A stretch of DNA of 64,000 nucleotides from IMG/VR virus record IMGVR_UViG_2897352509_000011. One strand, given 5' to 3'. Origin of the DNA: a virus. Its lineage: Duplodnaviria; Heunggongvirae; Uroviricota; Caudoviricetes. Shown in pieces: positions 1 to 6,000 of this stretch (positions are counted from its first letter, which is position 1; each line of letters starts with the position of its first letter). Made by a program: the position numbers.

Positions 1-3000
1 AGGACAAACTTAAAATCTAAGGAGTAAACCATGCGTTTCTCTGCACATTATTAATATCAAAGGTAAATACAGCCCCAGCCATTGTTACCGGAAAGCCGCT
101 TAATGCGTGGCTCGCCAGTGAAAGGCCTCTCAGACAATAAACCTTATTCATTTCACCCGTCAGGCCGCGTCTTCTCCGGGAGACGCGGCTTTTTTCATTT
201 ATTGCACCAGTAAATCTTAACCACCGATAAGGAGCAAAGTATGCGATTAGCCAGTCGTTTTGGTTATGCTGCAAACCAGATACGCCGTGACCGTCCGCTG
301 ACACATGAAGAACTGATACGCCATGTACCCAGTATTTTTGGGGAAGACCGGCACACCTCCCGCAGTGAACGGTATGCGTACATTCCCACCATTACCGTCC
401 TGGAAAATCTGCAGCGGGAAGGCTTTCAGCCGTTCTTCGCCTGCCAGACCCGTGTGCGCGACCCGGGCCGCCGGGGATACACAAAACACATGCTGCGTCT
501 GCGGCGGGCCGGAGAGATAAACGGAGAACATGTCCCTGAAATTATTCTGCTCAACTCTCATGACGGTACCTCCAGCTACCAGATGCTGCCGGGTTACTTC
601 AGGTTCGTCTGCCAGAACGGGTGCGTCTGTGGCCAGTCTCTGGGGGAAGTGCGTGTTCCACACCGGGGAAATGTAGTGGAGAAAGTTATCGAAGGGGCTT
701 ACGAGGTGGTGGGCGTGTTTGACCGGATAGAGGAGAAGCGTGATGCCATGCAGTCGCTGGTCCTGCCGCCACCGGCACGCCAGGCGCTGGCACAGGCGGC
801 ACTGACTTACCGTTATGGTGACGAACATCAGCCCGTCACCACCGCCGACATTCTGACGCCGCGACGCCGGGAGGATTACGGTAAGGACCTGTGGAGCGCA
901 TATCAGACCATCCAGGAGAATATGCTGAAAGGCGGGATTTCCGGTCGCAGTGCAAAAGGAAAACGTATCCATACCCGGGCCATTCACAGCATTGATACCG
1001 ACATTAAGCTCAATCGCGCATTGTGGGTGATGGCAGAAACGATGCTGGAGAGCCTGCGCTGATGCCGTTTCCCTGAGTGAGGGAATCATTCAGCTTTCGT
1101 TCCTGAAAAACACACATTTATTTGTTATTTAAGGAGTTATCTCATGAAAACCGTTTCTCAGAATACCCCCACAATTTATTCAGCTACAACACCAGAGAAT
1201 AATCCGCCTCAGTTGGTTGCCAGCCTCGTCCCTGATGAACAGCGCATCAGCTTCTGGCCGCAGCATTTTGGCCTCATTCCACAGTGGGTGACCCTGGAGC
1301 CCCGTGTCTTCGGCTGGATGGACCGTCTGTGCGAAGACTACTGCGGTGGTATCTGGAATCTGTACACCCTGAACAACGGCGGGGCATTTATGGCACCCGA
1401 ACCGGATGACGATGATGACGAAACATGGGTACTGTTCAATGCCATGAACGGTAACCGCGCAGAAATGAGCCCGGAAGCCGCCGGTATTGCCGCCTGTCTG
1501 ATGACGTACAGTCATCATGCCTGTCGTACGGAGAATTATGCCATGACGGTCCATTATTACCGGTTGCGGGATTACGCCCTGCAGCATCCGGAATGCAGCG
1601 CCATTATGCGCATCATCGACTGAATGGAGAGAGAATAATGCAACAACTTTCCTTTCTGCCCGGAGAGATGACGCCCGGCGAGCGCAGCCTCATTCAACGG
1701 GCCCTGAAAACCCTGGACCGCCATCTTCATGAACCCGGCGTGGCCTTCACCTCCACCCGTGCAGCACGGGAATGGCTGATTCTGAACATGGCGGGACTGG
1801 AGCGTGAAGAATTCCGGGTGCTGTATCTGAACAACCAGAATCAGCTGATTGCCGGTGAAACCCTCTTCACCGGCACCATCAACCGCACGGAAGTCCATCC
1901 CCGGGAAGTGATTAAACGCGCCCTGTACCACAATGCCGCTGCCGTGGTACTGGCACACAATCACCCGTCCGGTGAAGTCACACCCAGTAAGGCAGACCGG
2001 CTTATCACCGAACGTCTGGTACAGGCACTGGGCCTGGTGGATATCCGGGTGCCGGACCATCTGATAGTCGGTGGCAACCAGGTTTTCTCCTTTGCCGAAC
2101 ATGGTCTGCTTTAACCCTTCACAACCACATCACACCTGTTTTCACTTTTATCTTCTGTCTTCAGAGGTATCCCATTATGAAAATTATCACCCGTGGTGAA
2201 GCCATGCGTATTCACCAACAACATCCGACATCCCGTCTTTTTCCGTTCTGTACCGGTAAATACCGCTGGCACGGCAGTGCTGAAGCGTATACCGGTCGTG
2301 AAGTGCAGGATATTCCCGGTGTGCTGGCCGTGTTTGCTGAACGCCGTAAGGACAGTTTTGGCCCGTATGTCCGGCTGATGAGCGTCACTCTGAACTGAGT
2401 CAGTAAGGGCATTCTGATGAGCAGAATTATCGCCATTACCGGACCGTTCTTAACCGATTTTCTGTGAGGACTTTATCGTGTCAGACACACTCTCCGGGAC
2501 AACTCATCCCGATGACAACAACAGCCACCCCTGGTGGGGGCTGCCCTGCACCGTGACGCCCTGTTTCGGGGCACGTCTGGTGCAGGAGGGTAACCGGTTG
2601 CATTACCTTGCCGACCGCGCCGGTATCAGAGGCCTGTTCAGCGATGCAGATGCGTACCACCTGGACCAGGCCTTTCCGCTGCTGATGAAACAACTGGAAC
2701 TCATGCTCACCAGCGGTGAACTGAATCCCCGCCATCAGCATACCGTCACGCTGTATGCAAAAGGGCTGACCTGCAAAGCCGATACCCTCAGCAGTTGTGG
2801 TTACGTTTATCTGGCTGTTTATCCGACGCCCGAAATGAAAAATTAACTCTCCAGAATAGCCTTCTGCTACGGCCTGGTGTTTTCACCACGCCACTTTTCC
2901 ATTTTTATATCTGCATATCAGGAAAATCTTCAGTATGAAAACATTACCTGTATTACCCGGGCAGGCGGCCAGTTCTCGCCCGTCTCCTGTTGAAATCTGG

Positions 3001-6000
3001 CAGATACTGCTGTCCCGACTGCTGGACCAGCACTATGGCCTCACACTGAATGACACACCTTTTGCCGATGAACGTGTGATTGAGCAGCATATTGAGGCAG
3101 GCATTTCACTGTGTGATGCGGTGAACTTTCTCGTGGAAAAATACGCGCTGGTGCTACCGACCAGCCGGGATTCAGCGCCTGTACCCGCTCTCAGTTAATA
3201 AACAGCATCGATATCCTCCGGGCTCGCAGGGCGACCGGCCTGATGACCCGCGACAATTACAGAACGGTAAATAACATTACCCTGGGTAAGTATCCGGAGG
3301 CGAAATGATGACACTGGAAGCCGACAGCGTTAACGTACAGGCGCTGGATATGGGGCACATTGTCGTTGACATTGATGGTGTTAATATCACTGAACTGATT
3401 AATAAGGCCGCTGAAAACGGTTATTCACTCCGCGTGGTGGATGACCGTGACTCTACCGAAACACCGGCAACTTATGCCAGCCCTCACCAGTTGCTGTAAG
3501 ACAATGCAGTGATGCAGGGTATAGTGCCATTAACCACAGAAACAGCACTGTTGTCCTGTATTAAGCAGGCAAGAGAAGATGTCCTTACCCTGCGCCATCT
3601 GCAGCTTCTGCACCAGAACCGGTGAATCTCACTCAACAGGCTTCATTTCCCCTGACGCCAGCCTGAATACAGCTGGCGTTTTCATTTATAAACAGAAAGG
3701 AAAACCGATAATAATGGAATGGACGCCCCGACCATGAAGCAACGGTAGGATATTACTGATAAACCTTCCAGTGGAGGTGCGTTATGGCCGTTTTAACGAT
3801 TAGCATTGACCTGACAAAAAATGAATTCCAAATCCACGGTCTGGGTAGGAACAGAAAAATCTAAGCTCAGAAAACGGATTAAAGTAAGCGTCAACGGAGC
3901 ACCGTATTGACGCTTATTTATTGGTGAGAACTACGTTCCATGGCAGGAGTTCGTCAACACGGTTGGAGGGCCATTCCGGCAGTATGCTCAGAATATGGCG
4001 CAGATACGCTTCCGGATCGATACCGTTCAGACGGCAGGTGCCTGCTTTTCCGGCAACAAGCAGGAATCTCAGCGCTGAAGCAGGAATTAGAGGTAAAAAC
4101 GCCCTACCGGGCCATGAATCACCCGGTCATTGGAGTAGTAACCAAAGCAGATTTAGTCAGCATGGAACAAATATCTTTGGTGAAATGTTGGTTACGGGAA
4201 GCTGGAGCGCACAACGTGTTAGTAACCAGTGCGGTTAATAACAATGGAGTTACAGAACTTTTTGCCTTGCTGCATACAGAAGAAGGCTGCCGCTAATTTC
4301 GATAGGTTCTCAGATGAGAATGATGACGGTGATACACAGATAAGAATCAATGAGCAATGAGGGTTGCCGGGCAACCCTCATTGAATAAAACAGGAATTAC
4401 TTCGCTTCGCCGTTTTTCATTTCGCCCATAGCTTTCAGCTTTTTGGAGATATCGCGGCGTTCTTTGGAGAGCTCGGCATTTTTGATGATGTAATCGTCAA
4501 CGCGATCTTCATAGTCACCTTTCATGCTGGCGATGATGCCCTGGATTGCTTCAACGCTCATCCCTGGCTTGATGTAATCGCTCAGGTTGTCCAGCAACAG
4601 GACGCGCTTCTGGTTGTCACGGATCTTTTTCTCAACGTCCTGAATTTCACGTTGCAGTTTGTTCTTACGACGGAACAGACGAACAAATTCCAGTACGTCC
4701 TGGAATGAAGGCTTGGTAGTTTCCATTTTTATACCCCTGATAATGTGAGAGTCGGATTCGTTTAAGCAACCGCTATTCGATAGGGCCAACATTACTCATA
4801 GCTGCCGCAGATGACAATGCTTTTATCCCTTTTCACTATCATACCCTTTATCCTTGCTGAATCGAAGCAGCAGCAAGATGATTCTGAAGTTCAGGAATTA
4901 TTTGCGCAAGGCCCGGCAAATCAGACTCGATAGCAACTCAAGCTGATGTGCCGTTTCCATGTTCAGCCACACATAACCATAGATTGGTGTTTCCACAACC
5001 TTCAGGTCATGGTGGTTATTCAGCAACTGACGCAGCTCTTCCACAGCATCGTTCAATTTTTCCGTATTGGCAAAAACCGGCTGCGGATTACCTTCGTACA
5101 GCGCATGAACAAGGCTCAGCAGTATTTGCTGCATCATGTGCTGGGTATCACGAAGTTTTTGCGCGTTCAATAACACGAAATGGCTGGGGCGCGTGGCCCA
5201 GTATGCATTGATTTGCAACTCCAGCATACAAACCAGATTGCGGTTAATGGTCTGGATACCTTCATATATCGATTTTGGAATACGAGTTTCTTTGCTGGCG
5301 GGCGCAATCAGCCCACGCATTTTCACGGCATCGGTCAGCAGTTTTTGTAGATGGCTTTCCAGACGTGGGCGTTCGAGTAAGTTCGGTGAGAATGCAGATT
5401 GATAAACCCGATTATACTCGGTCAGACTTTTCGCCAGTTGAATGCGCCAGTGGATGAACGCCCGTTGTGGCCAGATACCGGTAAACAACATTGCCAGTAA
5501 AGAGCCGAGGATCACATCGCCGCTTCGCCATAACGCCGTATCAATTTCACCTGTCGGGGAACCCACAACAATTGCCAGCGTCACCCCAATCAATAATCCT
5601 TGATACGGTTTCTTGCCCAGCGCCAGCCAACCGCAAAGAAACATAGCCGCCGCGCACCAGACTAACATCAGCGGTAACGAAATTAACTCCAGTTGCAGAG
5701 CGATAAGACCTAAAATCGAACCCAACACCGTACCGCCAATACGTTCGAAGGCGCGAGGGACAACGTTACCCCAGAACGAGATTGGCCCCATAATCACCAC
5801 CATGGTGACCAGCGGCCAGGTGCTTTCCGGGATAGTAAACAGGCGGATAATGAGAAAAGTGAGCAGGAATGCCAGCGCGACCCGAGTACCATGCACAATG
5901 CGGTAATGGCGGTATACCCGGATTTCAAACGGGCTTAATGACTTATCGGCACGCACGCAGAAACTCCGTAATGAAGATTAAAAGCGCTCATAACTCATCT

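Follow-up and report, generated by a model that had tools for sequence, protein, structure and literature searches.

The window analyzed here, a stretch of 64,000 nucleotides (nt) from the IMG/VR virus record IMGVR_UViG_2897352509_000011 (Caudoviricetes), contains in its first 3.9 kb the right-hand end of an Escherichia coli cryptic prophage island of the CP4-44 type, in which the toxin gene cbtA (yeeV) is frameshifted and the upstream antitoxin gene cbeA (yeeU) is intact. We consider that this is an inherited loss-of-function allele of the gene for the CbtA toxin within a CP4-44-type cryptic prophage located next to tmaR/yeeX, with the antitoxin retained, and assign this reading a probability of about 0.85. 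The elements of the toxin–antitoxin pair are as follows (aa, amino acids):

2478-2846, plus strand: cbeA (yeeU) antitoxin gene, intact, 122 aa with a GTG start; matches Pfam CbeA_antitoxin (PF06154) with E = 4e-53 over profile positions 1-100 of 101.
2935-3308, plus strand: cbtA (yeeV) pseudogene, from the ATG to the original TGA stop, delimited by alignment with intact orthologues and by the label "frameshifted" that the NCBI pipeline gives to its orthologues in four genomes.
Between 3154 and 3155, plus strand: site of the 1-bp deletion, where the G of the Arg73 CGT codon is missing in the alignment.
2935-3198, plus strand: open frame of 87 aa left after the frameshift, with 72 native and 15 missense residues and a TAA stop at 3196-3198.
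3155-3308, plus strand: stranded 3′ part of cbtA, residues 74-124, legible in the shifted frame only.

Translation of frame 1 from position 2935 gives MKT...VEKYALV, which comprises the 72 native CbtA residues, followed by the out-of-frame tail, and the remainder of the toxin (TDQPGF...KYPEAK) is read in the third frame up to the TGA at 3306-3308. The intact cbtA genes of strains MEI2BO-21 and SE15 were used as references for alignment. Where they have GGTGCGTACC, the window has GGTGC-TACC with one G lost after base 3154, and this missing G is the sole length difference between the window and both references; compared with MEI2BO-21 cbtA, the DNA is identical except for the missing base. Joining the two frames with Arg73 restored yields a 124-aa sequence that is present in the public collection under the RepID CBTA_ECOLI. 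The original prediction had proposed a frameshift caused by a single-base deletion near 3154 at a homopolymer-free site, with the rest of the toxin readable in another frame, all of which agrees with the alignment and translation: the deletion lies exactly there, and its context, GGTGC|TACC, is not a homopolymer. Its description of CbtA as truncated at about residue 72 of 124 holds for the native residues but not for the product, which is not cleanly cut and ends only after the missense tail. Likewise, the start of the proposed interval 2935-3307 is correct, whereas the pseudogene ends at 3308, the last base of the original stop codon.

The cbtA locus matches the Pfam family CbtA_toxin (PF06755) with E = 1e-37, which identifies it as a homologue of this family. 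The restored 124-aa CbtA covers profile positions 1-112, and the 87-aa product covers positions 1-73 of 112 only; a functional member of the family is expected to carry the full domain in a single open reading frame (ORF; approximately 112 profile positions, approximately 124 aa in E. coli), which the window cbtA does not. No NCBIfam model exists for CbtA, CbeA, or YeeW. An AlphaFold2 model of a full-length CbtA homologue (mean predicted local distance difference test score [pLDDT] 72, predicted template modeling score [pTM] 0.60) contains five helices (18-34, 46-54, 59-75, 82-101, and 106-116). In this model the frameshift position coincides with the end of helix 3, and helices 4 and 5 are removed, which leaves the 87-aa product without residues 73-124, that is, the last two of five predicted helices and about one third of the conserved domain. 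A PDB search returned no solved structure for the CbtA family (best match E = 0.12). Among the full-length homologues in a 25-sequence alignment, the lost segment RTDQPGFS...NY..VN.I is invariant or nearly so, and the lost C-terminal part is conserved as strongly as the retained part, which indicates that it is constrained where the gene is intact.

Signals that could rescue the toxin were searched for in and around the disrupted frame. A scan of frame 0 across the entire 87-aa ORF turned up no slippery heptamer of the form X XXY YYZ, no ATG, GTG, or TTG start was found in the stranded C-terminal frame between 3117 and 3306, and no Rfam element was detected in window positions 1-9000. The only homopolymer run in the region where the two frames overlap is an A5 at 3137-3141, which intact alleles share. 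Because there is no slippery heptamer, no run other than A5, and no start codon, recoding or separate translation of the C-terminal part is not plausible. The cbtA frame is disrupted relative to intact orthologues at the same locus, with no recoding signal or internal start that would restore the product, as is typical of a pseudogene.

The antitoxin had been described in the original prediction as full length, which was confirmed: the 122-aa CbeA covers nearly the entire PF06154 profile, and its DNA is identical to the cbeA of MEI2BO-21 annotated as intact. It is located directly upstream of cbtA on the same strand, the arrangement of a type IV toxin–antitoxin module. The gene order DUF932 - antirestriction - yeeS - yeeT - cbeA - cbtA - yeeW beside tmaR/yeeX-yeeA-sbmC is that of the CP4-44 module.

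The frameshift allele is widespread. An 80-nt query centered on the deletion, for which the ≥99% identity band at such length and coverage consists of exact matches only, was matched in 1,486 of the 5,426 complete genomes of E. coli examined, compared with 1,776 that contain an exact match to the 81-nt counterpart without the deletion, in a genome collection that is enriched for clinical and Shiga-toxin-producing strains rather than representing the natural population and in which one genome may count as both broken and intact if a paralogous island has the intact sequence. Carriers of the deletion (ΔG) include O157:H7, O145, O111, and O103 strains and the species type strain ATCC 11775. All four carriers inspected (EC21Z-147, O157:H7 PV15-279, ATCC 11775, and O157:H7 EC4115) have the gene labeled "frameshifted" by the NCBI pipeline at the same locus, and the exact 87-aa sequence is encoded on at least 1,000 public contigs. 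The allele is therefore already known in the sense that it is recorded in public annotation and protein databases, being the same pseudogene as in RefSeq genomes; a literature search found no papers on a cbtA frameshift allele. Because it is present in about one quarter of complete E. coli genomes and is already an annotated pseudogene, the broken cbtA is an ordinary allele, and it is mechanistically unsurprising. The presence of the identical deletion in so many complete genomes also indicates that the lesion is neither private nor recent and that the resequencing once suggested for this site is not needed. Reference CbtA variants naturally ending at this point had been named as an observation that would overturn the interpretation; many 87-aa entries do exist, but they represent the same frameshift allele with the same tail and not an independent short form.

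Comparison of flanking sequences suggests how the allele has moved. The window is identical to the carrier EC21Z-147 over 2528-4156 (approximately 1.6 kb); 11 sites within 2466-2527, where the 5′ end of cbeA lies, distinguish the two. Compared with the intact MEI2BO-21, the deletion is the only difference over 2457-3513, and at 3514 and 3650 the window agrees with the carriers and not with MEI2BO-21. On a metagenomic contig (L006), the deletion recurs at this tmaR-yeeA-sbmC locus and the sequence agrees fully with that of the window from approximately nt 62 of cbtA onward, and the first 60 nt of its cbtA together with its cbeA (125 aa) are of another type. The deletion therefore travels on a short block that is common to carriers and enters different backgrounds by recombination, which accounts for the same junction standing behind several N-terminal variants in the homology search. 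A hypervariable patch at 2401-2527 corresponds to the yeeT-cbeA spacer plus the first 17 cbeA codons; compared with EC4115 it contains a 6-bp indel at 2401-2406 and 11 substitutions in 2466-2527, and the remaining cbeA is nearly invariant. This patch may mark either a recombination breakpoint or a variable CbeA N-terminus outside the Pfam domain, which starts at residue 18.

One alternative is that the 87-aa product still works, either as a toxin that is attenuated or confined to one target or as a modulator occupying FtsZ or MreB, and that selection, and not the drift of a dead gene, holds the allele at intermediate frequency; we regard this as unlikely. Several observations weigh against loss of function and would suit such a fragment. 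Residues R15 and F65, both of which are inside the retained 72 residues, contact MreB and FtsZ, respectively, and their substitution abolishes the respective binding (PMC5624674). The N-terminal helices are the confident part of the structural model (pLDDT 75-89 for the three N-terminal helices versus 58-70 for residues 71-100). C-terminal truncations of YeeV were, reportedly, still able to elongate cells, in a 2011 abstract by Tan and colleagues. The ORF and the stranded 3′ part show no secondary damage even in distant lineages: carriers including O157:H7 and ATCC 11775 have 0-1 differences from the window over 2847-3499 (cbtA and yeeW), versus 9-10 of 369 positions in cbeA and 8-9 of 481 in sbmC, and such an absence of further decay would also fit a maintained short form. 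The broken allele is, in addition, about as common as the intact one.

On the other side, intact homologues conserve the 51 lost C-terminal residues to the same degree as the N-terminal part, so these residues are normally required for function; the 15-residue tail is only noise from the wrong frame, and the NCBI pipeline annotates the gene as a pseudogene. Diversity is low throughout the 2528-4156 block, non-coding remnants included, and intact alleles show the same uniformity as broken ones; for these reasons the uniformity points to recent sharing of a block and not to selection acting on the short ORF. Because the entire block is uniform, the lack of signs of relaxed constraint in cbtA (no secondary lesions, no excess of substitutions) is weak evidence either way. 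It does bear on the earlier description of the locus as toxin decay in a cryptic island, in which the island is correctly identified, being of the CP4-44 type with a visibly degraded end, but "decay" is overstated for a gene with one lesion only and 0-1 further differences in carriers. In its more specific form, the alternative would have the 87-aa fragment stable with residual or altered activity, either as a weak division inhibitor or as a competitor blunting paralogous CbtA-family toxins, and ΔG held at about one quarter to one third of E. coli genomes by selection and not by drift or hitch-hiking; we think this quite improbable.

A second alternative concerns only the origin of the allele and proposes a mutational hotspot at which the deletion arose many times independently. 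The occurrence of ΔG behind at least three different N-terminal backgrounds would fit, as would a cbtA copy in a paralogous island (L008) that lost the neighboring C of the same CG (GTGG-TACC). The sequence context, on the contrary, offers no repeat that favors slippage, and the ΔG carriers inspected at the DNA level share the surrounding sequence exactly (EC21Z-147 over 2528-4156, L006 from nt 62 of cbtA), as recombination of one ancestral allele predicts; we regard repeated origin as unlikely. The L008 copy (L008:737-1000, on a metagenome scaffold) belongs to a different island, and its C loss leads into the same frame and the same stop with 87 aa, in a cluster of seven member sequences; it may have arisen from a separate event at this site or have been derived from the ΔG allele. 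Convergent truncation was also considered on account of many 87-aa clusters with the same tail but differing junctions, in a survey that was biased toward lesions entering this frame, as the query contained the tail. It was rejected: L006 is the same ΔG in a mosaic, L008 is a separate lesion of a paralogue, and L007 (CP041054.1, GCA_006385655.1) is a probable error. In L007, the A5 run of cbtA is one A short and a further 2 nt of the gene are deleted, and over positions 1-10,264 this "complete" genome has split island genes for DUF932, YfjS, antirestriction, CbeA (at 62 aa), DUF4942, and DUF2238. These lesions are probably uncorrected homopolymer sequencing errors, and assemblies of this kind make the truncated CbtA proteins in databases look more varied than they are.

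That the deletion is a sequencing or assembly error in the window and the real gene is intact was rejected as extremely improbable: such errors usually take the form of a single-base indel and the closest match over 1.2 kb, MEI2BO-21 (99.8%), is intact, but the site is not a homopolymer, the identical deletion is found in 1,486 independently sequenced complete genomes, the flanking variants at 3514 and 3650 are shared with carriers and not with MEI2BO-21, and in L007, an assembly with true error-type lesions, these fall in homopolymers and many neighboring genes are split. Hardly any probability attaches, similarly, to full-length CbtA still being made via programmed -1 ribosomal frameshifting or transcriptional slippage upstream of the 3196 stop, for which the two frames do overlap at 3117-3195, including the A5 run (GAAAAAT, 3136-3142), but for which frame 0 provides no slippery heptamer, five A's are short for slippage, the presence of the run in intact alleles means that it is no adaptation to the deletion, and no Rfam element was found.

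Directly observed are the lesion and how frequent it is, the fact that it is identical in different genomes, the mosaic structure, and the lack of rescue signals, and the inherited loss-of-function reading would connect them in the following way. Loss of one G in codon 73 shifts the frame and ends translation 15 codons later, giving an 87-aa product that is presumably non-toxic. Losing the toxin first and keeping the antitoxin is the only harmless order in which a toxin–antitoxin pair can be dismantled. The allele would be older than the strain of the window and would have spread through E. coli by descent and homologous recombination. CbeA might have been kept for uses beyond its own toxin: its action is on FtsZ and MreB polymers instead of the toxin, and its protection extends to other FtsZ inhibitors, according to the summary in PMC5624674 of the work of Masuda et al. 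(2012), and CbeA, YafW, and YfjZ each neutralize all three paralogous toxins, including YkfI and YpjF (PMC5371832). Since O157:H7 has at least one further yeeU/yeeV pair, adjoining the LEE island (PMC4321836), redundancy with other cbtA-family copies is likely and may have relaxed selection on this one.

The closest known system is the CP4-44 CbtA/CbeA (YeeV/YeeU) pair of E. coli K-12, which occupies the same locus with yeeS-yeeT-cbeA-cbtA-yeeW followed by tmaR/yeeX-yeeA-sbmC and in which the antitoxin is likewise intact. The K-12 CbtA protein (CBTA_ECOLI) is identical to that of the window once the missing base is restored. In contrast to K-12, where cbtA is intact and toxic on overexpression (PMC5624674; PMC5371832), the window frame is broken at codon 73, with 72 of 124 residues native. 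The "frameshifted" cbtA genes in the RefSeq genomes of EC4115, PV15-279, ATCC 11775, and EC21Z-147 have the identical deletion and locus, and their cbtA and yeeW differ from those of the window by 0-1 base; the window differs from these carriers only in the flanks, namely the 5′ end of cbeA, the upstream island genes, and the yeeA-dacD backbone. The YkfI/YafW (CP4-6) and YpjF/YfjZ (CP4-57) pairs belong to the same two protein families, share the island gene order of the window pair, and have antitoxins that cross-protect (PMC5371832), but they are found at other loci with 65-84% protein identity, and their toxins are intact in K-12. Orphan antitoxins and degraded toxin–antitoxin loci in general also show loss of the toxin first with the antitoxin kept. 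Unlike these, CbeA stabilizes its targets without binding the toxin, as far as the work of Masuda et al. (2012) is summarized in PMC5624674, and for this reason it can remain useful without a partner toxin.

The remaining annotated features of the island end and its junction with the chromosome are listed below.

241-1062, plus strand: island DUF932 gene.
1144-1623, plus strand: island antirestriction protein gene.
1638-2114, plus strand: yeeS, encoding a RadC-like JAB domain.
2177-2398, plus strand: yeeT (DUF987).
3305-3499, plus strand: yeeW, 64 aa, with the DUF5983 N-terminal domain only; identified as an ORF with a domain match, intact in the window and annotated as yeeW in the genomes inspected.
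3533-4296: degraded right end of the island and junction, with coordinates transferred from the MEI2BO-21 and EC4115 annotations.
3533-3625, plus strand: DUF957 fragment.
Approximately 3914-4042, minus strand: transposase fragment.
4114-4296, plus strand: EutP/PduV fragment.
4397-4726, minus strand: tmaR (yeeX), the first chromosomal backbone gene, which fixes the locus as the CP4-44 site.

The chromosomal genes yeeA, sbmC, and dacD follow tmaR/yeeX. The longest ORF of yeeS starts from an ATG at 1593 and overlaps the end of the antirestriction gene, and RefSeq uses the ATG at 1638, which gives 158 aa; this ambiguity is trivial. The ATG of yeeW overlaps the original cbtA stop (ATGA), with a GGAGG a few bases upstream of the ATG. 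Because this GGAGG is retained, yeeW need not rely on coupling to cbtA translation, as far as can be predicted from the sequence. Versions of yeeW in paralogous islands (L007 and L008) are 150-162 aa long and contain both domains. The 64-aa yeeW at the window locus, although annotated as intact, may itself be a truncated remnant.

A lambdoid prophage is located downstream of dacD, at approximately 8,500-50,000 of the window (as judged from its first ~50 kb) and probably beyond, with the effector gene nleG7 and with Shiga toxin 2 genes to which no window coordinates were assigned. It corresponds to the stx2c phage that has been reported from the interval between dacD and sbcB of O157:H7 SS17 and EC4115. 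Compared with O157:H7 EC4115, all 98 differences are in the first ~9 kb, comprising the island end and tmaR-yeeA-sbmC-dacD, and 9-25 kb are identical; no genome in the complete-genome set matches the first 9 kb of the window better than 98.9%. Because the differences are confined to this part and no complete genome exceeds 98.9% there, the strain combines a stx2c prophage of the O157:H7 type with a chromosomal haplotype in the flank that the complete-genome set lacks. It may have arisen by recombination, or another lineage may have taken up the same phage.

For annotation, these results mean that the frameshift is not to be taken for an assembly error or "corrected", and that tallies of toxin–antitoxin systems should not include the CP4-44 cbtA of O157:H7-type strains among the functional toxins. 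The importance of the allele beyond annotation is small. A modest population-genetic point is that one disabling toxin allele is about as common as the intact allele species-wide and moves by recombination, with the antitoxin remaining intact. Such a common combination of disabled toxin and intact antitoxin fits the view that CbeA has a value independent of its partner toxin.

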